Virus record (IMG/VR): IMGVR_UViG_3300044961_000262
Span: 19,780 to 83,779 of that record
DNA length: 64,000 nucleotides
Source: a virus
Strand: one strand, 5' to 3'
Part shown: in pieces, positions 5,209 through 20,279 of the stretch
Numbering within the stretch: the first letter of the stretch is position 1
Layout: each line of letters begins with the position of its first letter
Notes under the pieces: model-generated
The model's input: the letters and a program-made list of their open reading frames with translations, nothing else
Databases searched by the model: none
What the model was told of the DNA's origin: nothing
Program-made: the position numbers and the translations under genes

Positions 5209-5228
5209 AATTTTAATCTTAATTGATA

Positions 5229-5480: not shown

Positions 5481-5502
5481 TTTTTATACCTTATTAATAT
5501 TT

Positions 5503-5778
5503 TCATTTTATAATTCTTTTAATCGGTATAAAATATGCACTATCACCTGTTTTATCTTCACTACCTAATGCAAGAATAGCTTCTTCATGAAACCAATCTT
5601 CTTCCATATATTCTTGTGATTCAGGCCATTGTATTAAACAATATCCATTTTCAGTATGATCTAATATATCATTTATAATTTTTACTTTTTCATTATTTTC
5701 ATTATTTTCAGGATTTAATATATCAGATGTTGATTCTCTTATAAATCTTATTGCTGCTTCAAATTTTGTTTTTATCAT
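5503..5778 (-). CDS. hypothetical protein
   Basis: 91-aa ORF containing WPESQEYMEEDWF. Confidence 0.65.
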   Translation of the reverse strand: MIKTKFEAAIRFIRESTSDILNPENNENNEKVKIINDILDHTENGYCLIQWPESQEYMEEDWFHEEAILALGSEDKTGDSAYFIPIKRIIK

Positions 5779-5816
5779 AAATGTTTATTTATTATTAATA
5801 TTATTTAGTAATAATT

Positions 5817-6590
5817 TTAAATTTTAATTTCAATTACTTCTCCTTCTGAAGTTAATGTTGTTTTGATTATTAAACAGTTAGGATAAAAGCAATTATTGTT
5901 TAATGAACAACTTGAACCTTCTTCTTTGATACCATTTTTAGTACATTCCATCTGCAAATTAATTACGTCAGGTAGTTTAGGTTGGTTTTTCAGTTTTTCA
6001 GTTAATTCTTCAAAAGTTATTGAATTACCTGATGTTTTCCAATATTCTTGACCGCCTTTCCATATTATTTTAGCTTCTTCTTCTGTATATTTCTTATCAG
6101 AAGATTTAGCTTGGTTGTAAAGCATTGTTGCTAATTTTGTTCTACCATAAAAACAATTGTCACAACCGCAATCTAATTTTGAAAATTCACCATAAGAAGC
6201 TATTTCTTCTTTGTCATACCCAAATTCTTCTGATAAAGTTTCTTTTATTCCATCAGGATTTCTTAAATCATAATAACAAAGGTTAGTTAAAATTTCTTTT
6301 TCAACACTCTGTTCTACAAATTTGATTATAGGTATTGATTTATCAATCAATTTTCCGATTGATGCTATAATTTTAATAGCTCCAAAATTATTCTTTTTAA
6401 GAGGATTATATATCTGAACTGCTTTATTTCCAATAGGGTCAAAAACCCAATTCAGATGTTGTAATTTAGCTTTTGTATCAACAACTACCCAATAATCATC
6501 TACTTTAATAGGTTTTAAATTATCTGATATTTTGCCATTTACAGATACCGCTGCAAATATGTGTTCATTTGGTATTTCTATTACTTTCAT
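5817..6590 (-). CDS. modular hypothetical protein with Cys clusters
   Basis: 257 aa; CGCDNCFYGR and CSLNNNCFYPNC Cys clusters. Confidence 0.65.
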   Translation of the reverse strand: MKVIEIPNEHIFAAVSVNGKISDNLKPIKVDDYWVVVDTKAKLQHLNWVFDPIGNKAVQIYNPLKKNNFGAIKIIASIGKLIDKSIPIIKFVEQSVEKEILTNLCYYDLRNPDGIKETLSEEFGYDKEEIASYGEFSKLDCGCDNCFYGRTKLATMLYNQAKSSDKKYTEEEAKIIWKGGQEYWKTSGNSITFEELTEKLKNQPKLPDVINLQMECTKNGIKEEGSSCSLNNNCFYPNCLIIKTTLTSEGEVIEIKI

Positions 6591-6800
6591 AGTTTTATTT
6601 TAAAGTTTATTTTAAAGAATTTAAATACTCGTACATTTCTTTTGTTTGGGCAAATTTGCAATTTGTAATTAGAAAATATACATCATCATAGCTTGGGTTT
6701 AATGATTTGTAATAATCTAACATATCCCGTGTCTGTGCTTTTGGATAATTTACTATTAATCAGCGTAAATTATTTTTTACGTCTATTGTTATGTGAAATT

Positions 6801-7112
6801 TCAGAACCACCCACAAGAAATCAATTCTACAATAGTTTTTTCACTATTAACGGTATCATATCGCAATATTTTCCATTTTTTTCCTAATGGTTTAGGTAAT
6901 GGGAATTTTAATGTTTTCCAATCTGCACTATTATTACTATTTGCAATGAAATTATTACAAACAGTAACATCACAATTATAAAAATTTTTTGGTATCTCTA
7001 TCTTAATTATTTTGCTTGGCTTCCTAAAGAAACTTCGCACAACATTGGTTTGTGGCAAGTGCGGCTGACGTGGTTTAACCAGATTTAGTAATTCTAATAA
7101 TCTTCTGTACAT
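6801..7112 (-). CDS. hypothetical protein inside attC-like cassette 1
   Basis: Starts in the loop of the 7037-7170 inverted repeat, reads through its left arm (PHLPQTNVVRS), stops next to GTTATGT at 6788. Confidence 0.6.
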   Translation of the reverse strand: MYRRLLELLNLVKPRQPHLPQTNVVRSFFRKPSKIIKIEIPKNFYNCDVTVCNNFIANSNNSADWKTLKFPLPKPLGKKWKILRYDTVNSEKTIVELISCGWF

Positions 7113-7170
7113 ATTTTCAAAATTTGTGTTTCAAAATCTGCACCTGACCACAAGTTAAGTGCCGTTAGTG
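7037..7170 (+). repeat. attC-like recombination site
   Basis: GCACAAC (R'') ... TTGTGGCAAGTGCGG / CTGCACCTGACCACAA imperfect inverted arms ... GTTAGTG (R'). Confidence 0.6.
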
Positions 7171-7171
7171 A

Positions 7172-7453
7172 TCATTTCTTTTTACGTTCTAACCATTCTA
7201 TAAAATATTTCATCGCTGCCCATCCTTCTGCATCGTAATGAAAAGGTGTGTTCCAATCAGACATTTCTTCATCTCTGTATTGTTCTAACAAAGATTTAAT
7301 TTCCGCAAGCAACGAACCGCTAACAGGTTGTTGGCGTAATGTTACTTCCATCTGTCCAATTAAGGTTAGTAAATCATCGTGCTGCCTACCTCTTGCAGTT
7401 TTTACTTGCCCAGTTGCTACCCATTTTCTAAGTATTTCCAAATGTTCTTTCAT
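7172..7453 (-). CDS. hypothetical protein inside attC-like cassette 2
   Basis: Starts in the loop of site 7318-7509, reads through its left arm (TLRQQPVSGS), stop 1 nt from GTTAGTG. Confidence 0.6.
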   Translation of the reverse strand: MKEHLEILRKWVATGQVKTARGRQHDDLLTLIGQMEVTLRQQPVSGSLLAEIKSLLEQYRDEEMSDWNTPFHYDAEGWAAMKYFIEWLERKKK

Positions 7454-7509
7454 TCTATTGTAATTTATCGTTAATAATTCACACTACTCCAACCACCAAC
7501 ACATTAGGT
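7318..7509 (+). repeat. attC-like recombination site (R' degenerate)
   Basis: CGCTAAC ... TTGGCGTAATGT / ACACTACTCCAA (10 of 12 complementary) ... ATTAGGT. Confidence 0.55.
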
Positions 7510-7527
7510 GTAAGTGCTATGACACTG

Positions 7528-7749
7528 CTACCAAGCATCATCTGTAATTCTAACATTTAATTTTATTTTACCATCAGACCATCCAATATCGTGATTTTCT
7601 TTTTTAACCTCACATCTTTGAGTATCTATTGGGTAAGGGTATGCACGTTGCATAAGTTCATTTTTTGGAACTTCTTTTTCCACTTCAATTTCAAAAATAA
7701 AATCATCAGGAATAGATGAAATTAAATCTTTTAATTCTTTGATTGTCAT
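7528..7749 (-). CDS. hypothetical protein in cassette 3
   Basis: MTIKELKDLISSIPDD-type small protein between R' at 7503 and R'' CACTAAC at 7774. Confidence 0.65.
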   Translation of the reverse strand: MTIKELKDLISSIPDDFIFEIEVEKEVPKNELMQRAYPYPIDTQRCEVKKENHDIGWSDGKIKLNVRITDDAW

Positions 7750-7773
7750 TTTCGTTTAATTTACCGCACCAGC

Positions 7774-7800
7774 CACTAACAGCGGTTTGGTGCTATTATT
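7774..7800 (+). repeat. left half of an attC-like site (no right arm found)
   Basis: CACTAACAGCGGTTTGGTGCTATT, similar in style to the left arms at 7037 and 7318. Confidence 0.4.
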
Positions 7801-7949
7801 TTACCTAACTTTCTTCTTGCGGATAAGAACTAATATCGGCAAAAATTCTTTTACCATCAGTGCTTACTCTTAATCTTTCTTCGCTTGGAATATGTATTTC
7901 CATTTTCTTATTTATTTAAGTTGTTAAAAATTCATTTAAAAAGGGCGGC

Positions 7950-8044
7950 GTATAACGGTGGCTAAAATAAATTGTAGCATTTGTTTTTAGATTGAAGTTT
8001 TAGATCTCCAAAACCCTAACTTCTTTAGCCGTAAAAAATTAGCG
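7950..8044 (+). repeat. attC-like recombination site (R' degenerate)
   Basis: GTATAAC GGTGGCTAAAATAA ... TTCTTTAGCCG ... ATTAGCG. Confidence 0.5.
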
Positions 8045-8050
8045 ACAAAG

Positions 8051-8315
8051 CTATACAACCTTCCAACTATCAATTCTAACTAAATATTTCCTTTATATAA
8101 ATTTTCCATAAATCTTCAATTCCACCATCATTATCTCTACCTCTTTCAACACGTCTATCCATAAAATACATTTTACCTTTATATAACCTCACATTAGATT
8201 GAATTGAAGATGTATTCTTCGTAATCTATATAATGAAATTAACTGTATCATTATTAACATCAGATATATTCAAGTTTTCTTGGTTTTCTTTGAAACTTTT
8301 TATTTTATTTTTCAT
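8051..8315 (-). pseudogene. decayed cassette ORF
   Basis: MKNKIKSFKENQENLNISDVNNDTVNFII*ITKNTSS...LWKIYIK, then a frame change to KYLVRIDSWKVV* ending 6 nt from ATTAGCG. LNISDV is the antisense read of an R''-like TATTAAC at 8252. Confidence 0.4.
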
Positions 8316-8338
8316 TTTTAATTTTATTTACTAATAAT

Positions 8339-8370
8339 AAAAAAAAGAAGTATCCGAAGATACTTCTTTT
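8339..8370 (-). terminator. intrinsic terminator downstream of tmRNA
   Basis: GAAGTATC-TTCG-GATACTTC followed by T8 on the minus strand. Confidence 0.8.
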
Positions 8371-8412
8371 CCACCTTTTAATCTAATCAAGCATATGACA
8401 AAATTTGATTTG

Positions 8413-8790
8413 TGGAGATGTGGGGAATTGAACCCCAGTCCAGATAACTGCTATATAACAACTTTTATTACATGCTTAAATCTAATATTTCTATTTGATT
8501 AGTATTAAGCTTAACTGAAATTAAGCTTCACCAGTTAATCTTTAATATTATTATACTCCTAATAGATTAACAAACTTGGGAGTGAAAATTAAGCAGCTAA
8601 AACTACTTCTTTTTCTGCAACAGGAGCAAAAGCAATTACCATTGCTTCTACTTTATCAGCAAAAGTCCTAGACTCGTCTGATATATTGTTATTGTTTGCA
8701 TTTGTTTTTTGATAGTAATTTAGATGTAATCTATCATCCATCGCATGATTGTTATAAGGCTAAACGTTACTGTCAAATCCTGTCATCCCC
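8413..8790 (-). ncRNA. ssrA: tmRNA (378 nt), tag ORF 8699-8589: ANNNNISDESRTFADKVEAMVIAFAPVAEKEVVLAA*
   Basis: 5' GGGGATGACAGGATTTGACAG; 3' T arm GGGGTTCAATTCCCC plus CATCTCC-A; acceptor stem has the G3:U alanine wobble; GCA resume codon and LAA C-terminus. Confidence 0.93.
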
Positions 8791-8797
8791 TAAATAG

Positions 8798-9064
8798 CTA
8801 ATCTTTATCAGCTATTTCTAATTTCTGCAAAGCTAATTTTTTTTCTTCAATTCTTTGTTTTAAAACTTCATCAAATTGTTCTACAAAATTTGTAAATTTT
8901 TCATACAAATAGTAGTGCATTTCGTTTTTTTTTAAACAAATTTTACGAAATTTAATTAACTCGTCATCTGTTAATTCCGATATTGGTTTTAACGAACCGT
9001 CTTTCATTTTCCAAATGAGTTCTTTTTCATCTGTTTTGAGCATTATTTTGTTAACTGGTGTCAT
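8798..9064 (-). CDS. hypothetical protein
   Basis: 88 aa; WKMKDGxxxxIxELxD motif shared with 14621..14896. Confidence 0.65.
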   Translation of the reverse strand: MTPVNKIMLKTDEKELIWKMKDGSLKPISELTDDELIKFRKICLKKNEMHYYLYEKFTNFVEQFDEVLKQRIEEKKLALQKLEIADKD

Positions 9065-9088
9065 ATGTTTATTTATTAAAAAATGAAT

Positions 9089-9118
9089 AAAAAGAAGAGT
9101 CTTTCGACTCTTCTCTTT
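9089..9118 (-). terminator. intrinsic terminator
   Basis: GAAGAGTC-GAAA-GACTCTTC followed by a T run on the minus strand. Confidence 0.75.
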
Positions 9119-9133
9119 AAATTAAACTAAAAA

Positions 9134-9604
9134 TTAAAATACAGGAGCTTCTTCTACTTGAGATACTACAGTTGTATTTACTGGTTCTACAACTTCGTGT
9201 CCACGTGATTTAAATGCAGATTTAACTGTAGATTCCCAAGCTGGAGAAGCTGTATCTCCGAACACAACCGTAGTATAAGTATTTACAGCGCGAATTCCGC
9301 CATCTTTAGATTCGATGTCGTACTCTCTTACATTACGATTTTCAATTTTACCTTCAAAATAACCTCCCGCTTGAGGATTTCTTTCATTGAAAATAGGTGC
9401 TGAATAACCTGGATCTGGTTGACCAAGATAATTTAGTTCATACTGATTTACAGATGTTGAACGGCATTGGCTCAATGGTTTAGGCATTGGTCCAAATTGA
9501 GTGTTTAACATAGTACGTTCAGTAAATGTAACTGTTTTGTAGTTACGTCCGTTTTTGTCTTGTTTGATAGCTGATTCAGCTGTTTTTACGATAATGTGAT
9601 TCAT
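9134..9604 (-). CDS. hypothetical protein, possibly ssDNA-binding
   Basis: Beta-rich, own terminator, acidic/aromatic tail VEEAPVF reminiscent of SSB C-termini. Function is inference. Confidence 0.45.
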   Translation of the reverse strand: MNHIIVKTAESAIKQDKNGRNYKTVTFTERTMLNTQFGPMPKPLSQCRSTSVNQYELNYLGQPDPGYSAPIFNERNPQAGGYFEGKIENRNVREYDIESKDGGIRAVNTYTTVVFGDTASPAWESTVKSAFKSRGHEVVEPVNTTVVSQVEEAPVF

Positions 9605-9697
9605 TTTGTTTTAAATTATTTAAAGCGATACTAAAATGCGTAATCTTGTCGTTGAAACGCTTCACGCCCACATAGGTTATACTGATTGGGTCCAGTT

Positions 9698-9748
9698 AAA
9701 AAAGAAAAAGTTACAGTAAAACTTGGCAAATGCTGTAACTTTTCTTTT
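9698..9748 (-). terminator. intrinsic terminator (possibly bidirectional)
   Basis: AAAAGTTACAG...CTGTAACTTTT stem flanked by A/T tracts. Confidence 0.65.
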
Positions 9749-9768
9749 AAAAATAATACAAAGAACGA

Positions 9769-10086
9769 TTAGAATAATTCTGCTTGAAGAGCTATTAGAT
9801 TGTTATAATCTACTTCTGCATTTTCCAAATTGTATTTTGCTGCCAAAATAACTGAAGAATTAAAATTTAAATCAGATTTAGCACGGTCTAATACTGCTTT
9901 AGCTAAACTTACAGCTTTTTTAGCTTGAAGAATATCGTGTTGAATTTGAATACGAGCTTCTTCTACTTTTTCAAGAACTAATTCTTGATTTTTAGTTTCG
10001 TTAGATTTTGAAAGAAGTGATTGATACAAACACGTTTTTGTTGATTCAGTTTCTTCAGAAACTACTGTTTTTTTTGAAGTTGTCAT
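9769..10086 (-). CDS. helical hypothetical protein
   Basis: 105-aa ORF ending ELF. Confidence 0.7.
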   Translation of the reverse strand: MTTSKKTVVSEETESTKTCLYQSLLSKSNETKNQELVLEKVEEARIQIQHDILQAKKAVSLAKAVLDRAKSDLNFNSSVILAAKYNLENAEVDYNNLIALQAELF

Positions 10087-10289
10087 TGTTTTGATTTAAC
10101 TTTAATTACTTGATAACCCGGTACTGTTCTTTTAAATCCACTTCGTACCGGTTCAAAAGTAGATCTTGTTGTTTGGTGAGAGATTGTTTTTTTTTGAATA
10201 ATTTTTTCCTTATTATCTTTTTTAAAATTAAGTGTTATCGGAACTTTTTTCATTGCATCTTTGATGTCTTTTGCTATTTGCGATTTCAT
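10083..10289 (-). CDS. small basic protein
   Basis: 68 aa; ATGA overlap with the next gene. Confidence 0.6.
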   Translation of the reverse strand: MKSQIAKDIKDAMKKVPITLNFKKDNKEKIIQKKTISHQTTRSTFEPVRSGFKRTVPGYQVIKVKSKQ

Positions 10290-10551
10290 TTTGATATAAT
10301 AATAAAAATGTAATAAATAAAATAAAAAATAATAACGATACTATCCATGCTATAATTTCTTTTAAATTTATATTAATATACACTAATAATAGTGCTATTA
10401 TAAAAAATATTATAGAAATAGATAAATAAAATAATTTTACCATTAAAATATTATATTTATTGCAAATGGACCAATGAAAATAAATAAAGTGTTTTCATCA
10501 AGATCAATAGCTGCTCCTAAAACAAACATTGCTGCAATGTCTATTTTAACT

Positions 10552-10845
10552 TTAGGAATTAGATTTTTTTTGTTCATTTTGATTAAGAGTTACATGTTGT
10601 GGTTTAAATGCAGATAAATCTTCTATTTTTTTAGAAAGTTCTGTCATTTGTCCTGATTTAAGTGAAATAAAGTAAACATTTTTAGATTTGAAAAGTAGAT
10701 AACCGTATTCTATTAATTTATTAATTAAAACTTTAGATTCTTTACTGAAATTTTCAATATTTACGGTATTTCCGTAATTCATTTTAAGAAATTCAGCTGC
10801 GGATTTCATACTAGTCATTTTACAAAAAGATTCTTCGTTTATCAT
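10552..10845 (-). CDS. hypothetical protein
   Basis: 97 aa; ATGA overlap. Confidence 0.6.
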   Translation of the reverse strand: MINEESFCKMTSMKSAAEFLKMNYGNTVNIENFSKESKVLINKLIEYGYLLFKSKNVYFISLKSGQMTELSKKIEDLSAFKPQHVTLNQNEQKKSNS

Positions 10846-11108
10846 AATGGTCTATGAATTATTTCTTTATTTATTAATTCTCCAGTATGCTTATCAATAC
10901 ATGTAATATATTGAATGTAGAATTTGTACCCGTTACTTCTAGACTTTTTAATTCTAGTTTTAACGTGTGTAAATTTAGGATTAGAATTTTTTTCTTTCTT
11001 AGGTTTAACTATAGGTTTTTGTTCAACGTCTTCTATAACGCTAAGAGTTACTTTATAATCTCCATTTTGATTTTTTTTGGTAAGTAATCTATGAATTGTT
11101 TTTAACAT
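10842..11108 (-). CDS. basic hypothetical protein
   Basis: 88-aa ORF. Confidence 0.6.
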   Translation of the reverse strand: MLKTIHRLLTKKNQNGDYKVTLSVIEDVEQKPIVKPKKEKNSNPKFTHVKTRIKKSRSNGYKFYIQYITCIDKHTGELINKEIIHRPL

Positions 11109-11234
11109 AATTATGATATTAATAAAATTTCGATAATATTTTTTTTTTGACGATCTAATTTTCTAATAACTGAAATTACAATATTGCATTTATCATCATT
11201 TGATAAAGTATTTTTATTCTATCTAACTGTATTT

Positions 11235-11615
11235 TCATTTATATGTAACTAAAATTGTCCAACATTTAAATTCTTTAGAGTATTGTAAAAACAGTTTTCT
11301 TTCTTCATGTTCGTAAATATTTTTAGATACATATTTCCATCTAGTTTCTTCAATAATAGAAATTGCTTCATTTTCAGTTATATCTAAAGTAAATAAAATA
11401 CCTATACAATAATTTTGTTTACTCATATAATAAACATGAAGTACGGAGTTTTTAAATGTAGTTAAACACTTAGTTCCATCATCTAATTTAATTACTTCTA
11501 CAGAATATCCGTTAGATTCTAGTTCTTTCCTAACTTCACTTGCGCTCATACCTAAGTCTTGAGCATTTAACAATCCTCCAAAGAGAATTGATACGATTAA
11601 TAATAATTTTTTCAT
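11235..11615 (-). CDS. secreted/periplasmic protein
   Basis: Signal peptide MKKLLLIVSILFGGLLNA|Q; Gln at +1 is typical of Bacteroidota. Confidence 0.7.
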   Translation of the reverse strand: MKKLLLIVSILFGGLLNAQDLGMSASEVRKELESNGYSVEVIKLDDGTKCLTTFKNSVLHVYYMSKQNYCIGILFTLDITENEAISIIEETRWKYVSKNIYEHEERKLFLQYSKEFKCWTILVTYK

Positions 11616-11975
11616 GATTTAATTTTTTAATTCTTGTAAAACAGCTACAATAACCAATGCCAATATTGCTAATACCGAAAATGATACTAATAATATTTCT
11701 TTAATTTTTCTTTTCATTTTTTATTTAAAGATTAATAATTTAAAAATAATAAACTTGACCCATCTATTGTGAGAAAATTGTCGAAACATTTTTCAGGGAA
11801 GCAGTAACAATATTTCTTAAAATCCTATTTGTTTTAAAAAAGTATTATTAGCTGTTACAATAACTATACTCTTAATTATTTTGTAAGTAAAGCTTTGATA
11901 ATGTAATTTTGCAATTTTGCAAAAATTAATAAACTCACCGGTTGTCATTTTTACATTTTCCATGTTTTTAATTGA

Positions 11976-12161
11976 TTAAAGGTAATAAATTTGATTTCTT
12001 TTTTTCTTTTTTTTAGTTTTAATTAATACTACACTAATTATAGCTATTAAAGCAGTTAGATAACAAACTGATGATACGATTATTTCTGTTTTTAAAAAAA
12101 GTGGAACGAATCCAAAAAATAATCCGCAGATTAAAATTAGTAGTTTTTCTTTTCTAGTCAT
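11976..12161 (-). CDS. small two-TM membrane protein
   Basis: Two hydrophobic helices and a basic tail. Confidence 0.55.
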   Translation of the reverse strand: MTRKEKLLILICGLFFGFVPLFLKTEIIVSSVCYLTALIAIISVVLIKTKKKKKRNQIYYL

Positions 12162-12205
12162 ATTATTGTTGATTAAAATTAGGTTTTAGATTTCTTTATT
12201 TTTAA

Positions 12206-12232
12206 TAAAAAGCAAGAGGTAGTTCTCTTGCT
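12206..12232 (-). terminator. intrinsic terminator ending the structured tract
   Basis: AGCAAGAG-6-CTCTTGCT followed by TTTT on the minus strand. Confidence 0.65.
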
Positions 12233-12236
12233 AGTT

Positions 12237-12705
12237 TGTAAATACTTTACATATTGTAATAGTATTTACATTTTTTAACACAAACACCATCAACATTTGC
12301 AACTGTTGATATATAAATTTATTCTCCACTTACCTTTAAAAGTTTCGTAGTTTCTAAAACTATTTTATATTCGTATTTGTGTTGTAGTAAGTAAATAGCT
12401 GACAGTGCAGTTCATTTAAACCAATTTGTCCTATTAATAAGGATGGTCACTTTTACTTACCAAAACCTAAAATCTACTTAGGTAAGGATAAAATTGTGTT
12501 GTCAAGTCATTAATTAAAAGGATATACCAAGCATCATACTTAACTTGCTATTTGATACGTCAGCCGTTTAATTACTAATTCCTTTCGGAACAACACAATT
12601 TTAAATTGTTAGGTAAACTGTTTGTAGTCACGAATACTACCAGCTCAAGTATGTAGGGTTGAATACCTACTATGCCCAGTTAATTTTTTTCATCCTAACA
12701 ATTTA
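12237..12705 (-). ncRNA. candidate structured ncRNA tract A (consecutive closed domains)
   Basis: No ORF; closing stems 12237-46/12261-70, 12277-84/12376-83, 12387-95/12452-60, 12490-501/12591-602, 12602-13/12694-705; internal TTCC-GAAA-GGAA GNRA loop on minus. Confidence 0.55.
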
Positions 12706-12729
12706 TTACAACTCCTTAATTGTAATTTT

Positions 12730-13002
12730 TTATTCAATTTCACTAGCTTTTTCAACAGCCAATTCTAATTCATCTACTGTTTCTTTAAACCATTTTGAAT
12801 ATTTTAAAATTTCTTTAAAATAATCATCATCTTTTAAAGATTTAATTTTTGTAATAGTACTTGCATAATCTATAGCGGGTATTTTTTGACCTATTTGTAT
12901 TTCTTTAGGTTTATTTCCCGTTACTGCATTAACTATTTCTTTAATTTCATTTTCGGTAGCTTTAATTAAAAAGCCTTCATTTGTTTTTGCTATTACTTCC
13001 AT
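12730..13002 (-). CDS. hypothetical protein
   Basis: 90-aa ORF. Confidence 0.7.
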   Translation of the reverse strand: MEVIAKTNEGFLIKATENEIKEIVNAVTGNKPKEIQIGQKIPAIDYASTITKIKSLKDDDYFKEILKYSKWFKETVDELELAVEKASEIE

Positions 13003-13010
13003 AATTTTAA

Positions 13011-13505
13011 TTAGTTTTTAAATATTTCTTTAATTTTTTTATTACTCACTGAATTAGACAAAGGTAACACATTTTTATCCGGTTTAATTTCTATCCATTG
13101 AGATTTTTCTAATCTGCTAAATTCAGATAAACAATATCTTACAGCAGCTTCATTTATATCCCATTCAGGAAATACTTCATCTTTTTTTGGATTTATCCAA
13201 CCATTTTGATTAGTATAATATCCATATTTCCAACAATTGTGTGGTTTGATTGCTTCAAAAAAATCAGTAATAGTTCTTGCGTTACCTGTTAATGGTATTC
13301 TACTCATTTGACTAACTAATAAATAAGCTATTCTGTTTTTCTTTTGTTCTAAAGAATCACTTTCTAAACAACCTAAATAACCATCAGCTTGAATAAGTAT
13401 TTCTAAATCATCCCAAATAGTTTTTCTTTTAGTAGATTTAGGATTGTATTTTTTATACCATCCTTTACTGTAAAGCACAATGTGTTGTAATGTGAATTTT
13501 TCCAT
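13011..13505 (-). CDS. hypothetical protein
   Basis: 164-aa ORF (YSKGWY...LIQADGY). Confidence 0.7.
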   Translation of the reverse strand: MEKFTLQHIVLYSKGWYKKYNPKSTKRKTIWDDLEILIQADGYLGCLESDSLEQKKNRIAYLLVSQMSRIPLTGNARTITDFFEAIKPHNCWKYGYYTNQNGWINPKKDEVFPEWDINEAAVRYCLSEFSRLEKSQWIEIKPDKNVLPLSNSVSNKKIKEIFKN

Positions 13506-13510
13506 AATTA

Positions 13511-14248
13511 TTATTTTAAATTATTTTCGATCCATTCTTTTGGTATATTAACACTGTTATAATAACCATCTCTACCATAATATAAAGTGTCTTTTTCATA
13601 TTGATAAATTAATTCAATAACTTCATCTCTACTCCAACTCTCTTTTACACTTGAAATATTAATAGTGTTATCTGGATTTATTTTTAATCTTATATCAATA
13701 GTAGATTCACCATCAGATAATCCATAATTACCAACTGCATATTCTTCATATTCAACCATTACATCAGTAATAATATTACCTTTGTTATATTCATAAATAT
13801 AATAGGCAATAAATAATTGTGGTATTTGAGGTAACTTAAACAATTTTGGTAGTTTTATATTTTCTGATTTACTACCAAACATATTTGTATCAAAACTATC
13901 AATACCATAAATTGAATTCGTAGTTAAAGAACTATCAGTTGTAGCTATTACTTTTTTGCAAAAATCTTTTTGTGTTGCTAAACCATTTAAAGAATCCGCT
14001 AACCAAATATCATCACCTGTAACATCATTATCATAAGAAGATTTTACTTGCATTATATTATCTTCATTATATAATACCCAATCTCCTTCTTTAATTTCAT
14101 CATCAGATAAAATGTAAAGATGTTGATTAGTCCATGTATTACTTGGTGAATTTTGATTTTGTAATCCTCCTATTTCAAAACTTGTGTCCAAACAAATATT
14201 ACTTGATTTATCAGTAGGTAACATAATTATTTTACAGTGTTTTTTCAT
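13511..14248 (-). CDS. hypothetical phage protein
   Basis: 245 aa; IIMLPT...QHLYILSDDEIKEGDW...KKVIATTD...LKINPDNTI. Confidence 0.7.
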   Translation of the reverse strand: MKKHCKIIMLPTDKSSNICLDTSFEIGGLQNQNSPSNTWTNQHLYILSDDEIKEGDWVLYNEDNIMQVKSSYDNDVTGDDIWLADSLNGLATQKDFCKKVIATTDSSLTTNSIYGIDSFDTNMFGSKSENIKLPKLFKLPQIPQLFIAYYIYEYNKGNIITDVMVEYEEYAVGNYGLSDGESTIDIRLKINPDNTINISSVKESWSRDEVIELIYQYEKDTLYYGRDGYYNSVNIPKEWIENNLK

Positions 14249-14279
14249 AATTGTTTTTTTTTTGAGTTAATTAGTAAAT

Positions 14280-14344
14280 TTTACCCATCTGCATTTATAG
14301 AGGCTTTGGACTCTCAATGATTAATCATTGGCTGCATTAATAAA
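14280..14344 (-). ncRNA. twister ribozyme, type P1
   Basis: TTTAT-TAA-TGCA-GC-CAATGA(TTAA)TCATTG-AGAG(TCCAAAGC)CTCT-ATAAA-TGCA-GATGG-GTAAA. P1-P4, both pseudoknots (GC/GC, CCA/TGG) and the conserved UAA, AAGC and GA are present. Predicted cut U^A at 14339/14338. Confidence 0.9.
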
Positions 14345-14347
14345 TCA

Positions 14348-14618
14348 GTAAACAATGGCGCAATCTTCGTCAAGACCGCTTATTTTCATTGTTTACCTAC
14401 CTGTTTGTAGATGGTTCTGCCATCGCAACATTAACTTTCATTAAGGAGCTACCTTAATTACTCGAAGGTCTTCTTCAAGTTTACTCGTAGAGCTGTTTTC
14501 CTTGCGCTAGGTTTTACAGATACTTGGATTACATGAAAATGCCATGTAGCAGGAACAATTAAATCCATACCCTATTCCTACTTTAAGGTATTTAAGACGG
14601 TTTAACTCACCGACAGCT
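14348..14618 (-). ncRNA. candidate structured ncRNA tract B
   Basis: Three exactly abutting closed domains 14348-14396, 14397-14490 and 14491-14618 with internal hairpins; no ORF; GC-richer than flanks. Confidence 0.55.
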
Positions 14619-14620
14619 TT

Positions 14621-14896
14621 TTAATAAATATCTATTTCACAAGCATCAAATCCACAACAATATTCTCCTAAATGCTCTTCACCACAATTAGGACAAGTTT
14701 GTGAATTATTAAAATCTTGTGCAATATCACCTTTCAGTTTAAATTTAGTTACAGACTTACTATTATTCTGTTGTAACTTTTGGATATTGCGTAATAGCAT
14801 CTTAAAAGCATTTCTAACATGGTTATTATCCATATCATCAACATTTATAAGATTGCCATTACGCATTTTCCAATAGACAGGCGAATTATCCTTCAT
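14621..14896 (-). CDS. hypothetical protein with C-terminal Cys cluster
   Basis: WKMRNG motif; CPNC...H...CC...C. Confidence 0.65.
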   Translation of the reverse strand: MKDNSPVYWKMRNGNLINVDDMDNNHVRNAFKMLLRNIQKLQQNNSKSVTKFKLKGDIAQDFNNSQTCPNCGEEHLGEYCCGFDACEIDIY

Positions 14897-15179
14897 AAGA
14901 TTGATTTTTTAATGAATTTAATTTAGATTCGTTTTTTAAATCAAGATATTTCTGATATTTAAGACAATCTAATTCATCAGTTAGTTCTGAAATTGCATAA
15001 TTCCATTCTAAACGATATTGATAATTATCTGAAACATCTTCAATATCTTCTAAAGATAATCTATTTTTACTTTTTAAATCTTTCAGTTCTTGCAATTCTT
15101 TTTCAACCTGTCTAATTCTTTCTTCTATATCAGAAGGAAAATAAGGTTGCATTTCATCGAAATACTTAGGCTTTTTCAT
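14886..15179 (-). CDS. coiled-coil hypothetical protein
   Basis: 97-aa ORF overlapping the next gene. Confidence 0.65.
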   Translation of the reverse strand: MKKPKYFDEMQPYFPSDIEERIRQVEKELQELKDLKSKNRLSLEDIEDVSDNYQYRLEWNYAISELTDELDCLKYQKYLDLKNESKLNSLKNQSYEG

Positions 15180-15254
15180 TTTGTTTATTATTTAAGTTTT
15201 ACAACTAACTCTCAGCATAGTTGAACTCTGAATTTGAATAGTTTATTCTATTTT

Positions 15255-15310
15255 TCTGTTTCGATGCTCAATTACATCATCATCAGTATGAACAATAGTC
15301 CATAGACAGA
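15255..15310 (-). ncRNA. hammerhead ribozyme, type III
   Basis: TCTG-TC^-TATGGAC(TATT)GTTCATA-CTGATGA-T-GATG(TAATTGAG)CATC-GAAA-CAGA. Complete core, three stems, GUC cleavage triplet (cut 15305/15304), one extra U after A9. Confidence 0.9.
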
Positions 15311-15314
15311 TATT

Positions 15315-15358
15315 ATAAAAATAACTCTCAACCATTAGGCTTTATGATTGAGAGTTAT
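15315..15358 (-). terminator. terminator-like hairpin just 5' of the hammerhead
   Basis: ATAACTCTCAATCAT...ATGGTTGAGAGTTAT followed by TTTT. Confidence 0.6.
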
Positions 15359-15498
15359 AGTTGCGAGTTCTCGCTGCAATTTACTGAGTTTACATGATCG
15401 TAGTTTTAAATTAACAAAATAAAGAAACAGTGTATCTATAAAGGTAGAGGTTAATTACTCCTTTTTTGGTTCACCTTGTGGATTTTTACCACAGTAGC

Positions 15499-15894
15499 CT
15501 ACACTATTTCTTTAACAATAGGAGCAACATTCATATACCTAATTTTAGGTCTACGATTGTTATTCCTTGCTACAGCTTCAATTTCCTTATTACTAAGGTT
15601 ATTATCGCCATAGCTTCTTTCTAATTCATACTGATATACATCTTCAAGATAGCCTTTTTCTTGTTGATTCATATAGTTAATGAATTTTTCAGCATCAGAA
15701 TCACGAATTAGATATAGAAATTTATTTTCTCCATCTTCTTCGTAAACTGTTCTTCCTTCATTTAATCCCCAAAATGAACACATAATATATGGAGGTTCAT
15801 CATTAGGAAATGTATGTTTGTGGATAATAGTATATCCTTTTACTTTTTGTCCAACATACGGAAATAACAAAAAGAGTTCTCTTGATTTGTTCAT
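15499..15894 (-). CDS. hypothetical protein
   Basis: 131-aa ORF. Confidence 0.7.
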   Translation of the reverse strand: MNKSRELFLLFPYVGQKVKGYTIIHKHTFPNDEPPYIMCSFWGLNEGRTVYEEDGENKFLYLIRDSDAEKFINYMNQQEKGYLEDVYQYELERSYGDNNLSNKEIEAVARNNNRRPKIRYMNVAPIVKEIV

Positions 15895-16102
15895 TTTAAT
15901 ATTTTTTTTGAGTTTGAGCTACCATTTATTTTAATTCTTTGGGAACATTAAGAATTTGTTTAAGTGTAAAAACAAAAAACCTTACTAAGTACGAAACTTT
16001 TCAGGTTTTATGACAAATCCGCGTGATTTGTTCAGACACGCTCATAATCAACAAGTTACATTGTTGAATTTAAAGTTTTACTTTAATTTTTATATTAAAC
16101 CA

Positions 16103-16198
16103 GTTAGCAAGTTTAGCAAATTTAGCAATATTAGTAAGTACGAATAGTTAGCAACATTATCTGAAGACAATGTGCTAACTATGCTAACAATGCTAAAC
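16103..16198. repeat. TTAGCAA short-repeat cluster (direct and inverted)
   Basis: TTAGCAA x3 plus TTAGTAA at 9-nt period, a further TTAGCAA at 16148, then three inverted TGCTAA copies. Confidence 0.7.
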
Positions 16199-16210
16199 AA
16201 CCTATTGTCC

Positions 16211-16549
16211 TTACATTTGGACAATAAGTTGTGTGCCGAATACAGAAGCGGCTTTCGCAAATTCAGTTGCTGAACCTGCACCGTCAAACGATTTGAATTC
16301 CATAGATTGTTTCAAACGTGTAACAGTTTCGCCTTTAAGAAACAACGGTTTACCGTCTTTTAACGTTTTAGAGTCGTTTTGGGCTATAAATTTGTCGCCA
16401 ACTTCGTTGATAACGATAGACACGATACGTGCTCCATTATTTGAAGTGTCGCCATTAGCCCAAACGGTTCCGTTAGGTGTTTCGATAGCGGTTTTGCCCA
16501 ATTTTTCGATAAAACGTTGGGCAATAATTGGTTGATTTTCAAATTTCAT
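16211..16549 (-). CDS. first gene of the leftward arm, hypothetical
   Basis: Likely start MKFENQ at 16549; locally GC-richer codon usage. Confidence 0.65.
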   Translation of the reverse strand: MKFENQPIIAQRFIEKLGKTAIETPNGTVWANGDTSNNGARIVSIVINEVGDKFIAQNDSKTLKDGKPLFLKGETVTRLKQSMEFKSFDGAGSATEFAKAASVFGTQLIVQM

Positions 16550-16838
16550 AATGATAGAATTAAAAGGTTGAAGAATAAGATACGGGTAACATCCCCGCAA
16601 AATTGGAGAGGGGGATCTTTGTATGACCTAGAACACATTCACATATTTTTCTCAAAAAAAAAATTCCAAAAAAAAATTTTTAAAAAATAAGCATGTTCAA
16701 AACGCAAACATCTAACTCTCTGATAATCATTCAGAAACGTAACGAAAATTTGCTATATATATTCTCTATAATTTGACAAGATTTCTCTCTGAATATCAAC
16801 AACTTAACACTTTCCTTTTTGAACATTGTTCATTTTAT

Positions 16839-16858
16839 TAAATTTGTTCATATATTTG
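16839..16858 (+). promoter_or_regulatory. tandem Bacteroidota-type -7 elements (TAnnTTTG)
   Basis: TAAATTTG at 16839 (TTTG -33 element 17 nt upstream) and TATATTTG at 16851, before ATG at 16875. Confidence 0.65.
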
Positions 16859-16874
16859 AACCGCAATAAAACAA

Positions 16875-17405
16875 ATGAGTAAACAAGTACCAGATTCCAT
16901 TAAACAAGCTAAATCTCCTTTTATTCAGGAGCTTAAAATACCTGTATTTAATAAACAGGTATCTGAAGATTTAGCCGTTATGGATAGATTAAGTGTTGAA
17001 AATGATGTAGTTATCTCTTTAGGAGCAACTCATACTATCAAAAGAGGATACGTTATTGAAAAGGATAGAAAAGTAAATCTTTATTATGAAAATGATGGTG
17101 AAGATCTTAGACCCGCATATTCTTCTTTATCTAAAGAAGGTAGAATGTTATTAGAGTATATACTATTATATTGTCTTAGGGAAAATAAATTGTACTGTTA
17201 CATTGATTTTAAAGACTTTATGGAAAAGTATAATGTGTTTTCTAGAACTACGGTGTGGTCATCTAAAAAAAATCTTATAGATCATATATTTATTGCTCCA
17301 ACTTCTCATAACGGATGGTATTGGATTAATCCTAAATATATGTTTAAAGGATATAGAACTAAGGTTTACGAATTACAAGATAACCTTAAAATTAAAGAAG
17401 TGTAA
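16875..17405 (+). CDS. RepL-like winged-helix protein
   Basis: SRTTVW...L...YWINPKYMFKG, the typical RepL C-terminal motif; such a gene is common in crAss-like phages. Confidence 0.7.
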   Translation: MSKQVPDSIKQAKSPFIQELKIPVFNKQVSEDLAVMDRLSVENDVVISLGATHTIKRGYVIEKDRKVNLYYENDGEDLRPAYSSLSKEGRMLLEYILLYCLRENKLYCYIDFKDFMEKYNVFSRTTVWSSKKNLIDHIFIAPTSHNGWYWINPKYMFKGYRTKVYELQDNLKIKEV

Positions 17406-17423
17406 ATTATAATAAGAAAAAAT

Positions 17424-17834
17424 ATGAAAGAAAGAGAAAAATTAGCAGTAGACAAAGAAGGAAATTTAATTCCTACCGGTCAAAAACAAATATCAATTGA
17501 TGACATTAATGAATTACAAGAATGTAATTACGTTCCTTATGGACATGAAACACTATTACAAATGTTATCGACTAAAGAACAGGTAACTCAATCGGGTATT
17601 ATTTTACCTAAAACTGAAAGAGGTGAAATTAAAGCGATTGTAGCTGCAACCAATGAACATTCTGGATTAACTAGAGGTCAAGTAGTTAGATTAGACGGAA
17701 TGATGTTTGGACAAACGGGTGTTTGGATTGATTATATTGAAGGTAAACCTTTTACTCAGGTACCTAATCATTTCATTAAAGGAGTTTATCAAGGAATTAA
17801 TTTAAGTAATTGGAAAAACAATGAACATAACTGA
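17424..17834 (+). CDS. GroES-like co-chaperonin
   Basis: Mobile-loop motif EQVTQSGIILP followed by AIVAA...GQVV. Confidence 0.6.
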   Translation: MKEREKLAVDKEGNLIPTGQKQISIDDINELQECNYVPYGHETLLQMLSTKEQVTQSGIILPKTERGEIKAIVAATNEHSGLTRGQVVRLDGMMFGQTGVWIDYIEGKPFTQVPNHFIKGVYQGINLSNWKNNEHN

Positions 17835-18078
17835 AGAATCTAAAGAGTTTGAAACTCCTCAAGTAGAAAGTATTCAAGAAGCAATTGAAGCTCTTAAACA
17901 AACAGGTAATGTTTTTAAAACAATTAATGTTGGAAATGAAGAAGTTAGATTGTTTCAATCTTATTCAAATCAAAGATTACCTGAAGAATCTTATTATGAA
18001 TATAAAATTAGACAGTATATTATGAAAGAAAGCCTTAAATCTCATAAACGCAATGGGTACTCTGGTAGTAACGTATGA
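17821..18078 (+). CDS. hypothetical protein
   Basis: 85 aa; RLPEESYYEYKIR. Confidence 0.6.
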   Translation: MNITEESKEFETPQVESIQEAIEALKQTGNVFKTINVGNEEVRLFQSYSNQRLPEESYYEYKIRQYIMKESLKSHKRNGYSGSNV

Positions 18079-18207
18079 GTTTAATGAATTAAGTGAGTTA
18101 TTAGTAGGTACAGAGAGATATAAATCTTTGTACCGAACTAATAATTTAACTTTCAATTATCAAATGTTTATTGGTAATAATAAATTTATAAGTATTTTTG
18201 TACTGAA

Positions 18208-18462
18208 ATGAATCAAAGGAATATACTATTTACAACAAACTATGCTGTATATTATGATAGTTGGGTTAAAGTTCCTTCTGAAGGAAGACCTAAAGGTTTT
18301 TTCGATACTTACACAAGAAAAGATTATACAATTAATGTTACTTCTGGCGAATTCTATCTATTATTAGAAATAATAGATTCTAAAAATAAAGTTGTTTTTA
18401 AAGGAACAGTTAGAACGATTCCGGATTACATAAAGTTAAAAAGAAAATTAAAATGGATTTAA
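18208..18462 (+). CDS. hypothetical protein
   Basis: 84-aa ORF overlapping the next gene. Confidence 0.6.
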   Translation: MNQRNILFTTNYAVYYDSWVKVPSEGRPKGFFDTYTRKDYTINVTSGEFYLLLEIIDSKNKVVFKGTVRTIPDYIKLKRKLKWI

Positions 18463-18746
18463 AACAATTAAATAGTGAATTTGTTAAGTTAGCTCGTAAA
18501 CATGAATTAACTGTAAGTCAAATTAAATTAATTTATAATCACCAGTTTAAGCTTATTATGAATAAAATTCATGAAGATTTTGAAAAACCGATTAACGAAA
18601 GAGATTCTATTAAATTGAGAGGATTGGGTACTTTAAAATTTAATCCATATCTTGCGAAACGAATAACAGAAAAAAAAGATAATTATGAACAAAAAATTTT
18701 ATTTAAAGGCTCTTCCGAAAATGGAAACGGAGCTGAATCTAATTAA
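18453..18746 (+). CDS. HU/IHF-like DNA-binding protein
   Basis: Helix-turn-helix followed by SIKLRGLGTLKF (HU-type IxLxGFGTF). Confidence 0.65.
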   Translation: MDLKQLNSEFVKLARKHELTVSQIKLIYNHQFKLIMNKIHEDFEKPINERDSIKLRGLGTLKFNPYLAKRITEKKDNYEQKILFKGSSENGNGAESN

Positions 18747-18921
18747 AACAATGATTGATGTTTTAATTTATGAAAAGAATGTAGCGGAAAATCCTAACAT
18801 TGAAGTAATTAACATTGCTCAAAATACTATGAGAGAAACCGTTTTAAATATTAAAAAGGTTTTGTCTAATCCTAGTAAATATGATAATAGATTAACTCCC
18901 GAAGACGATTTATTATCTTAA
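18685..18921 (+). CDS. hypothetical protein
   Basis: 78-aa ORF. Confidence 0.55.
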   Translation: MNKKFYLKALPKMETELNLIKTMIDVLIYEKNVAENPNIEVINIAQNTMRETVLNIKKVLSNPSKYDNRLTPEDDLLS

Positions 18922-18923
18922 TT

Positions 18924-19694
18924 ATGAAACAAAAAATTAAACGTCTATATTTCGATATAGAAATAAGTCCGAATGTTGTATATTCTTGGAATACAGGATA
19001 CAACATAAAAATTGATCCTGAAAATATAGTAACTGAAAGAGCTATTATATGTATATGTTATAAATGGGAAGATGAAAAAAAAGTACACTACTTAACTTGG
19101 GATAAAGGGAATGATAAAAAGCTATTAAAAGAATTTATAGAAATAATAAATTCAGCGGATGAAGTTGTAGGTCATAATTCCGATAAATTCAATATTAAAT
19201 GGGTAAGAACAAGATGTTTATATCATAGAATTCCGGCAATGCCTAAGTATAAATCTATTGACACATTAAAGCTTTCTAAAAGTCAATTTAAATTTAATTC
19301 TAATAAATTAGATTATATATCTAAATATTTAGGTTTCGGAGGTAAGATTAAAACGTCTTATGATTTATGGAAAAGAATAATGAATAATGATCAGAAAGCT
19401 TTAGATCAAATGGTTAGGTATTGTAAAAAAGATGTTTTAATTTTAGAAGAAGTATATAAATCAATACAGCTATATTCTCCACATAAGACTCATGTAGGAG
19501 TTCATTTCGGAGGATATAAATCGGATTGTCCTAAATGTGGCTCCGAAAAAGTTCATTCTAGAGGTTATTCTACAACAGCTGCCGGTACTATTAGCAGAAG
19601 ATGTAATTGTAAAGATTGTAATACTTGGTTTAGTGTACCCTTAACAACATTCAATAAAGAAAATAGAATTAAAAATAATGTCGCAAAAATATGA
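18924..19694 (+). CDS. DnaQ/RNase H-like 3'-5' exonuclease with C-terminal zinc ribbon
   Basis: ExoI FDIE, ExoII GHNSDKFN (Asp replaced by Asn), ExoIII YCKKDV; CPKC...CKDC. Confidence 0.8.
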   Translation: MKQKIKRLYFDIEISPNVVYSWNTGYNIKIDPENIVTERAIICICYKWEDEKKVHYLTWDKGNDKKLLKEFIEIINSADEVVGHNSDKFNIKWVRTRCLYHRIPAMPKYKSIDTLKLSKSQFKFNSNKLDYISKYLGFGGKIKTSYDLWKRIMNNDQKALDQMVRYCKKDVLILEEVYKSIQLYSPHKTHVGVHFGGYKSDCPKCGSEKVHSRGYSTTAAGTISRRCNCKDCNTWFSVPLTTFNKENRIKNNVAKI

Positions 19695-19975
19695 AATTTA
19701 TTAAATTAGAAGTTCTTTATTCGTCAGTTAATGATGATGAAACGGATTCATATAAAAATGTATTAAAAGAAATAGGTGTAGATTCGGAAGAAGATGCTGT
19801 TTTTAAAACTACATATTTTAATAATGAAAACTTTAAAGAAGAAATATTTTGTATAGCAGCAAGAAAGGATAATCCTGATAATTCAGTTATTGAATTTTTT
19901 GACGGTAAAAGTATAATTGTAAATGAAAAGCTTGAAAATTTAATTTTAAAATTAAATGATACCGAAACAGTTTAA
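19691..19975 (+). CDS. hypothetical protein
   Basis: 94-aa ORF. Confidence 0.65.
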   Translation: MKFIKLEVLYSSVNDDETDSYKNVLKEIGVDSEEDAVFKTTYFNNENFKEEIFCIAARKDNPDNSVIEFFDGKSIIVNEKLENLILKLNDTETV

Positions 19976-20279
19976 AATATTAAACCATACAATTGATGTA
20001 ATATTCGACAATGAATATTGTTATCAGAAAAATGCTTTCGGTATATTTTTAGCAAATGAAAATAAAATAATATTAGCTGATAGCTATAGAACAAAGAAGC
20101 AATGGAGAAAATATAAACCTGAAATTGTAGAACATGTCTTTCATCATGAAATGGTTCACGTAATATTGTATTATATGAATCATTCTCTTTTTGAAAATGA
20201 AGAATTTGTAGATAATTTTGCAGGATTATTAGCTCAAATAGAACAAACGAAAAAATATGAAATTAATGAAAGTAACTGA
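19956..20279 (+). CDS. small zincin-like metallopeptidase
   Basis: HEMVH motif plus downstream EEFVD. Confidence 0.75.
   Translation: MIPKQFKILNHTIDVIFDNEYCYQKNAFGIFLANENKIILADSYRTKKQWRKYKPEIVEHVFHHEMVHVILYYMNHSLFENEEFVDNFAGLLAQIEQTKKYEINESN

Follow-up and report, generated by a model that had tools for sequence, protein, structure and literature searches.

The subject of this analysis is a predicted self-cleaving ribozyme of the twister class at positions 14280-14344 on the minus strand of a stretch of viral DNA of 64,000 nucleotides (nt), which comprises positions 19,780 to 83,779 of the IMG/VR record IMGVR_UViG_3300044961_000262. The whole stretch is called the window in the following and all coordinates refer to it unless another locus is named. 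The parent virus record has a length of 83.8 kilobases (kb) and is 93% complete according to CheckV. The window is A+T-rich and carries the terminase, portal and major head genes on the plus strand, and leftward from position ~16600 it contains small genes on the minus strand. The ribozyme is located in a gap of this leftward arm, between the open reading frames (ORFs) 14621-14896 and 13511-14248, and it is co-oriented with both of them. Terminases of crAss-like phages from Bacteroides, Flavobacterium and Cellulophaga share 32-34% identity with the one encoded here; the source phage is treated here as a distant crAss-like phage, and a host from the Bacteroidota is probable. The features of the locus are collected in Table 1.

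Table 1. Positions of the ribozymes and of the neighbouring features in the leftward arm of the window.
Feature	Position	Strand	Basis
Type-P1 twister, P1 to P1	14280-14344	-	RF03160 match, own model R1, family covariation
Stem P1	14344-14340 with 14284-14280	-	Rfam alignment and alignment A1
Stem P2	14336-14333 with 14293-14290	-	Rfam alignment and A1
Stem P3	14330-14325 with 14320-14315	-	Rfam alignment and A1
Stem P4	14314-14311 with 14302-14299	-	Rfam alignment and A1
T2 pseudoknot, GC with GC	14332-14331 with 14304-14303	-	Rfam alignment and A1
T1 pseudoknot, CCA (loop L4) with UGG (P1/P2 internal loop)	14309-14307 with 14287-14285	-	Rfam alignment and A1
GA	14289-14288	-	Rfam alignment and A1
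Predicted scissile U14339/A14338 in UAA	14338-14339	-	U-A of UAA in Rfam alignment
Strong hairpin ending 3 nt before P1	14348-14396	-	Fold, -14.0 kcal/mol
Rest of ORF-free, G+C-enriched folded tract	14397-14620	-	Composition, ORF scan, fold
Two overlapping small ORFs	14886-15179 (97 amino acids), 14621-14896 (91 amino acids)	-	ORF lists
Type III hammerhead variant with GUC site and one additional U behind CUGAUGA	15255-15310	-	Descriptor match and covariation
Terminator-like hairpin with U tract, 15 pairs	15321-15358	-	Terminator scan; just before the hammerhead
A-rich leader, 31 nt, without Shine-Dalgarno sequence	14249-14279	-	Sequence
Downstream ORF, 245 amino acids	13511-14248	-	phrog_15656, PHROG E 3.8e-30

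Identity of the twister ribozyme

Judged from its sequence, the element is a complete and intact type-P1 twister ribozyme containing the optional stem P3. The match to the Rfam family RF03160 (twister-P1) covers positions 14281-14343 on the minus strand and model positions 1-68 of 68 with a score of 60.3 bits; the E-value amounts to 4.7e-13 in 701 nt, to 1.3e-11 in 20 kb and to 1.3e-14 in the whole 83.8-kb record, within which the match is unique. The stems P1, P2 and P4 and the optional P3 occur in the type-P1 order, open at P1, and are all paired in the RF03160 alignment. The core elements that were checked comprise the UAA cleavage site, the GCC following P2, the L4 loop, the UAAA junction and the GA. 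Not all upper-case consensus positions of the P3 loop are matched; outside this loop the upper-case consensus is kept throughout the core, except for compensatory pairs in P4 and for one exchanged pair of the T1 pseudoknot, in which C is replaced by A in L4 and G by U in the P1/P2 internal loop, so that the third T1 pair is A-U and the one in the Rfam consensus is C-G.

A preliminary description of this DNA had placed all elements of a twister here, including both pseudoknots with T1 pairing as CCA/TGG, and had proposed a search with the twister-P1 covariance model as a check. This search returned the match described above, and every element named was found on the minus strand at the positions of Table 1 in the RF03160 alignment as well as in a family alignment of our own (A1, see below). 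The assignment of T1 is borne out by the Rfam alignment, by the stacking order P1-T1-P2-T2-P3 (PMC6154101), with which the naming agrees, and by the counts of T1 variants given below. Twisters are cleaved at a U-A site (PMC6154101), and the U-A of the UAA in the Rfam alignment falls on 14339/14338, which is the cleavage position that the description had anticipated. The predicted 5' product would end at 14339 with a 2',3'-cyclic phosphate and the predicted 3' product would start at 14338 with a 5'-OH group.

The RF03160 twisters Osa-1-4 and env22 (PMC6154101) agree with the element of the window in the arrangement of P1, P2, the optional P3 and P4, in having both pseudoknots, in the U-A site within the P1/P2 internal loop, in the L4 loop and in the UAAA junction. 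P3, which the twister in the window has, is present in 78% of the known twisters (PMC6154101). The twister of the window differs from RF03160 in its third T1 pair, A-U instead of C-G, in its A-U rich stems and in a score that stays below the curated gathering score (60.3 compared to 67.2 bits). It adds an example to a known class and does not represent a new one.

Covariation in the family of the T1 variant

IMG/VR was searched with a pattern that reaches from L4 through the T1 partner and contains the letters A and U of the exchanged pair. This search resulted in 43 stretches with the combination CCA and UGG, all but one of which (L017) parse as type-P1 twisters by a simple rule. The alignment A1 comprises 29 distinct sequences, the window included, with both pseudoknots written in. 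In A1, 96.4% of 664 cells form standard pairs, the individual helices are paired to 87.6-100% across the 29 relatives and changes on both sides are present in 18 of the 24 pairs. The covariation score is 0.576, compared to 0.143 in shuffled alignments and 0.035-0.130 with slid partners; none of 500 shuffles reached any of five measures, and sliding the partners by 1-3 columns lowered the pairing to 26-43%. Only the minus strand, read as RNA, shows G-U pairs. The pairs of T1, those of T2 and one of P4, six in all, are invariant; they were fixed by the search pattern and are uninformative in A1.

For T1 itself, the four combinations of its two strands were counted in IMG/VR. Next to the 43 stretches with the matched combination CCA and UGG, there are 29 with the likewise matched CCC and GGG; the mismatched combinations CCA with GGG and CCC with UGG occur in 0 stretches each. 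As far as such counts of stretches can tell, which are not independent events since many of the phages are near-identical, the third T1 pair covaries cleanly. The covariance model, the covariation in the 29 distinct relatives and this two-by-two comparison all support the identification as a twister. The A-U variant of T1 is also present in GTDB genomes, in 16 stretches that are mostly contigs of metagenome-assembled genomes from several phyla.

A sub-lineage below the Rfam threshold

A scan of the window with Rfam at default thresholds reported only a transfer-messenger RNA (tmRNA) and not the twister. All 20 CCA/UGG twisters for which an Rfam score was obtained lie below the cut-off. These are the window itself (60.3 bits), five of five records (48.1-61.4 bits) and 18 of 18 loci, of which none was listed at the gathering threshold, with four loci present in both sets. 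Of five records with the canonical letters CCC/GGG, only one has a match above the cut-off. The covariance model R1, which was built from A1, scores 79.6 bits at 14280-14344 as its sole match in the 64-kb window, and as a positive control it recovers the twister in 29 of 29 canonical loci. Since all 20 scored CCA/UGG members fall below the cut-off, the shortfall in score is a property of the sub-lineage and not a sign of decay; the Rfam model cannot credit the compensated pseudoknot pair, and the gathering score is a scoring convention rather than a structural feature. This leaves a practical gap, as the routine annotation of phage genomes will miss the sub-lineage with the A-U pair in T1.

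A chance resemblance to a twister, or a decayed and inactive relic of one, is extremely improbable. Such an origin would be in agreement with the score below the gathering threshold, with the A-U rich stems P1 and P3 and with a nested fold that is no better than that of shuffled sequences. However, the E-values range from 1e-11 to 1e-14, all stems are intact, the conserved positions of the core are kept outside the P3 loop except for compensated changes, the same variant is under covariation in 29 distinct sequences and the low score is shared by all 20 scored CCA/UGG twisters.

The hairpin and the folded tract upstream of the ribozyme

The hairpin that directly precedes P1 is among the most stable of the surrounding 50-nt windows (1.7th percentile of the folding energy). 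Unusually stable hairpins abut P1 across the family, too: when the 50 nt next to P1 are compared with the background of each locus, they are at or below the 5th percentile in 7, at or below the 10th percentile in 12 and at or below the 25th percentile in 18 of 29 loci of the family. Twisters may carry an optional stem P0, which is present in 21% of them (PMC6154101). As a hairpin abutting P1 recurs across the family, it is read as part of the ribozyme unit, and the hairpin 14396-14348 is likely a P0-like accessory of the ribozyme that at the same time forms the 3'-terminal hairpin of the upstream product.

Together with this hairpin, the folded tract comprises 277 nt between the stop codon of the ORF 14621-14896 and the ribozyme. 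It is ORF-free, with no stop-free frame of more than 37 codons, and its G+C content is 0.37-0.40, compared to ~0.22-0.29 for the majority of 100-nt windows in the ORFs on either side. The fold of 14344-14625 has an energy of -73.6 kcal/mol (z -3.34; 1 of 200 shuffles as good) and the last 250 nt upstream of the ribozyme reach a z of -4.34. No Rfam family matches the tract at E<=10. Searches with blastn in GenBank phages gave five records, none of them over the tract or the ribozyme, and in the 43 twister loci they gave similarity only at the ribozyme, with or without the leader. Two pattern scans of metagenomes for relatives of the tract returned 0 and 0 stretches, the second pattern requiring a C-G closing pair of P3 and thereby excluding ribozymes of the L014 type. 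The tract is either a structured 3' untranslated region or a noncoding RNA. Among the family loci, the upstream 250 nt fold with z<=-3 in 10 of 28 cases, compared to 6 of 27 downstream controls; with this small difference, only the 50 nt abutting P1 stand out among the upstream structures. A long-range upstream structure as a rule of the family was considered and dropped, since these counts are not distinctive.

The ribozyme begins 3 nt after the hairpin and ends 31 nt before the ATG of the downstream gene on the same strand, in line with the earlier proposal that it separates the structured tract from the messenger RNA (mRNA) of 13511-14248. From this placement it follows that a single cut would define where the upstream RNA ends (3') and where the downstream mRNA starts (5'). 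It might be asked which of these two ends matters. That the twister serves mainly to make the 3' end of a free-standing noncoding RNA, namely the 277-nt tract, with any effect on the downstream mRNA being secondary, is possible but rather doubtful. It would explain why the tract is ORF-free, G+C-enriched and folded above shuffles (z -3.34, and -4.34 for the last 250 nt), why it ends 3 nt before P1 and why the ribozyme is of type P1, which leaves only 6 nt on the upstream product and thus suits the making of 3' ends. However, the stop codon at 14621 immediately precedes the tract, with neither a 5' processing site nor a promoter in between. The searches yielded no homologue and no Rfam family that could provide covariation, the upstream folding in the family is not clearly above the downstream control (10/28 compared to 6/27), and a P0-like element common to the family is the better explanation of the last hairpin.

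A second ribozyme upstream

Farther upstream on the same strand, a hammerhead descriptor has its sole match in the window; one or more matches occurred in 7 of 200 simulated windows. The match has the hammerhead core CUGAUGA ... GAAA, three stems and an NUH triplet, and is open at stem III. The predicted cut lies at 15305/15304, 966 nt upstream of the twister cut. The core with the extra U is present in six IMG/VR stretches with four distinct sequences (L173/L178, L174/L176, L175 and L177). The hammerhead of L173/L178 is identical to that of the window except for one flanking letter, with 100% identity over 62 nt in otherwise different flanks. The hammerheads of L174/L176, L175 and L177 differ in stems I and III, which nevertheless stay complementary, and the GUC triplet is kept in all four distinct sequences. 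The Rfam hammerhead models gave no match at E<=10 in 15180-15500 and none at E<=1 in 1-20000. On the strength of the descriptor match and the complementary changes, 15255-15310 is accepted as a real hammerhead variant. Both ribozymes have the same polarity, in that the ribozyme body falls on the downstream RNA and a hairpin ends the upstream RNA, and this shared polarity of hammerhead and twister is taken as the best clue to their function.

The pair of ribozymes might also act together, excising the 966-nt RNA between the two cuts (15304-14339), which a host ligase of the RtcB type would then close to a circle. The end chemistry of both ribozyme classes suits RtcB. Two ribozyme classes on one strand at a distance of 966 nt, their 5'-OH and 2',3'-cyclic phosphate ends, which fit the substrates of RtcB, and the presence of RtcB in a Bacteroides control genome would speak for such a circle. 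Against it, the phage record was searched and encodes neither RtcB nor an RNA ligase of the family PF09414, and no twister was found at the six other loci with the hammerhead variant in the DNA available (0/6), so that we consider this excision very unlikely.

The leader and the downstream gene

The leader contains a TAATTAA at 14273-14267 (minus strand), and this motif provides the ORF with a preceding stop in its own frame, the stop-to-stop frame ending at 14266. Among 30 non-redundant loci of the family, 6 (including L006, L010, L013, L014 and L044) have a TAATTAA no more than 45 nt past the ribozyme, compared to 0.33 expected; the motif could be a frame-independent stop or an element of the leader. 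The leaders of the family are A/T-rich.

The downstream ORF belongs to a PHROG family annotated as of unknown function, which represents a widespread phage protein with 796 homologues. A consensus of the N-termini of 25 homologues supports its ATG at 14248; the gene call in the protein database starts 8 residues later. The 245-residue protein has no Pfam match, and an Atlas search with it gave no usable match. BLASTP gives 48% identity to the best homologue, P0002, and our own alignment 64%; P0002 is encoded on an 85-kb contig. Residues 1-120 (13889-14248) recur with 52% identity as the N-terminus of P0046, the other half of which carries the domains NUMOD4, AP2 and HNH_3; by their domain assignment these are of the homing-endonuclease type. 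On the upstream side, the ORF 14621-14896 has only a weak PHROG match (phrog_16964, E 2.9e-4).

Genomic context of the ribozyme family

The ribozymes of the family lie between genes, in the sense orientation of the flanking ORFs. In 34 of 68 cases, and in 28 of 42 within the CCA/UGG set, no more than 70 nt separate them from the start of the next same-strand ORF with at least 40 codons. The flanking proteins and ORFs cluster only among near-identical phages, and a conserved partner gene was therefore rejected. The similarity of the window to other phages stops at the ribozyme or, in L014, L022 and L024, extends for ~40 nt into the leader (78.8% over 118 nt), and the loci with a ribozyme like that of the window carry unrelated flanking genes. 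One identical 63-nt twister precedes at least three different downstream sequences (L013, L033, L006, L036, L039 and L047). L013 and L033 have the leader in common to just past the ATG and then encode different proteins, a pattern that looks like gene exchange at the ribozyme-leader unit.

These observations bring up the question whether twister and leader are a mobile module or a recombination joint for gene cassettes, with self-cleavage being incidental to the position. The similarity confined to the ribozyme, with or without ~40 nt of leader, amid unrelated genes would be expected of such a module, as would the twister's absence from all 80 loci encoding homologues of the downstream protein, which R1 searched with a positive control of 29/29. 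The identical 63-nt ribozyme with at least three downstream sequences, the divergence of L013 and L033 just past the start codon and the hammerhead that is 100% identical over 62 nt in the other flanks of L173 and L178 point in the same direction. However, the compensatory changes and the G-U pairs show selection on the RNA structure and not on a DNA site alone, and the strict covariation of the RNA is left unexplained. Furthermore, conserved short RNAs appear to be mobile in any comparison of divergent phages, and no relatives of the window phage were found that are close enough for mapping breakpoints. Overall, a module of this kind with incidental cleavage is unlikely.

Transfer RNAs (tRNAs) are present near the twister in few loci of the family only. 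As an example, in L008 a tRNA at 8513-8585 (minus strand, 52.3 bits) is followed at a distance of 66 nt by a CCA/UGG twister at 8384-8446 (minus strand), and in L010 and L020 a tRNA-Arg lies ~135 nt upstream of the twister. Some family members may therefore process tRNA transcripts. A general linkage to tRNAs was rejected, as ARAGORN found no tRNA in the window and few family loci have one.

Proposed role in the processing of a polycistronic transcript

Taken together, it is highly probable that the intact twister cuts a polycistronic transcript independently of the host and that a unit of hairpin, ribozyme, leader and ORF punctuates the cistrons. RNA polymerase on the leftward arm would transcribe hairpin, ribozyme, leader and ORF as one piece. 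The twister would then fold and cut itself between U14339 and A14338 without a host enzyme. The upstream product, with the two small ORFs and the folded tract, probably begins at the hammerhead cut at 15304; it would keep 6 nt of the ribozyme, and its 3' terminus would consist of the stable hairpin, another 9 nt and the 2',3'-cyclic phosphate. The downstream mRNA would carry a 5'-OH group, the compact ribozyme body of 59 nt, the A-rich leader of 31 nt and the phrog_15656 ORF. The hammerhead would cut likewise 966 nt earlier, behind the terminator-like hairpin. In this way each cistron might obtain its own protected ends without host ribonucleases (RNases) and thereby its own stability and translation.

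For the start sites of such a transcript, the minus strand from 17000 to 14344 was scanned for the Bacteroidota-type -7 motif (TAnnTTTG), which resulted in a single site at 16124; none was found from there to the ribozyme, and the next two sites on the minus strand, 13898 and 13883, lie inside the downstream ORF. As the phage may use its own polymerase, this distribution is weak evidence on start sites. A scan for sigma-70 promoters gave 24 sites compared to 28.7 expected and is uninformative. Around the -7 motif at 16124, the region ~16090-16160 (minus strand) contains repeated words similar to TTGCTAA and is a candidate for the promoter of the leftward arm. The sequencing runs listed for this DNA include none of RNA; they are DNA runs with the labels hot springs or microbial mat metagenome, possibly from the source sample, and the lack of RNA runs says nothing on expression.

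Several observations weigh against transcript processing by an active twister. The score of 60.3 bits stays below the curated RF03160 gathering score of 67.2. Moreover, the nested minimum free energy (MFE) fold of an 81-nt stretch has a z of -0.47, with 53 of 200 shuffles at least as good, by a folding method that is blind to pseudoknots, and in the MFE fold of a longer precursor P2 is swapped for other pairings. Many of the 43 loci belong to near-identical phages and 11 of them share one ribozyme sequence. A short spacing between ribozyme and ORF is expected in any compact phage genome, and transcription may also start between the ribozyme and the ORF. R1 found no twister within 2.5 kb of the homologues of the downstream gene (0/80 loci); being absent from all of these, the twister is not required for the expression of that gene. 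Finally, the region of the start codon has an unpaired probability of 0.78 in the cleaved RNA and of 0.69-0.72 in precursors according to a simple accessibility model. An unmasking of the start codon for translation was dropped as an explanation, as this difference in accessibility is not meaningful.

Going beyond the punctuation of cistrons, the two ribozymes and their surroundings might be joined into one far-reaching scheme. The hammerhead/twister pair would yield a circular, exonuclease-proof RNA with the two small ORFs and a folded tail, and the cassettes of hairpin, ribozyme and leader would act as a mobile, host-RNase-independent punctuation of operons for phages of hosts that lack Shine-Dalgarno sequences. 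We give this scheme little chance of being correct as a whole. If it were true, reading the ribozymes as a pair and as cassettes would supply the biological role of bacterial and phage twisters that has been missing since their discovery.

Comparison with known self-cleaving ribozymes

The glmS ribozyme and synthetic insulators such as RiboJ are self-cleaving RNAs located in the 5' leader, which generate an mRNA with a 5'-OH group and alter its stability or expression. In this respect the twister of the window is similar, being a self-cleaving ribozyme in a 5' leader for which a 5'-OH mRNA is predicted. In contrast to these systems, no ligand control is evident here, the element occurs naturally in a phage and its effect on mRNA stability is only proposed. 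The glmS ribozyme is described in PMC6765202.

For bacteria and prophages it was reported that twisters and hammerheads share neighbourhoods near phage genes, and the processing of polycistronic transcripts was proposed (PMC6765202), their roles in bacteria and phages being still undecided in this source. Likewise, the ribozymes of the window are intergenic, in sense orientation and in phage DNA, with a hammerhead near the twister. The difference is that here a single predicted transcript of a crAss-like virion genome carries both classes, both of them in the order hairpin, ribozyme, leader and ORF, so that a concrete and testable layout takes the place of a statistical association with genes. 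The value of the locus lies in this clean layout of two ribozymes and in the covariation of T1: a single predicted transcript contains two different ribozymes, both directly preceded by a hairpin and followed by leader and ORF, in a compact arrangement that is accessible to experiments.

Theta ribozymes, which are similar to the hepatitis delta virus (HDV) ribozyme, are small self-cleaving RNAs of tailed phages of gut Bacteroidota and other hosts and contribute to the formation of RNA ends (PMC10879173). They belong to another class and are tied to tRNAs, whereas the window contains no tRNA and few loci of the twister family have one nearby. A word search of the available text of PMC10879173 gave neither twister nor hammerhead. 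No literature on twisters in crAss-like phages was found, in a search that did not extend to the supplementary seed alignment of the primary twister papers, which possibly holds the T1 variant and examples from phages.

Further structured RNAs

The tmRNA reported by the Rfam scan is encoded by the phage at 8410-8790 (minus strand) and scores 92.2 bits; ARAGORN made no call, and a 3' CCA is not encoded in the alignment. tmRNAs are present in other twister-bearing loci, too (L008, L041 and L045). A second G+C-enriched stretch (0.37-0.46) of the window lies at 16150-16600. Apart from two terminator-like hairpins on the minus strand, it contains only ORFs that overlap, lie on both strands and start with TTG or GTG; it may represent another structured RNA instead of a gene. 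On the phage contig of L003, where a homologue of the downstream gene is encoded, a tRNA match of 44.2 bits at 5554-5672 (plus strand) contains a 56-nt insertion in the region of the anticodon loop. Finally, the provirus G010 (the record of L059) carries seven twister-P1-like matches of 24.8-55.1 bits within 4 kb at 164-3876 (minus strand), which form a tandem array.

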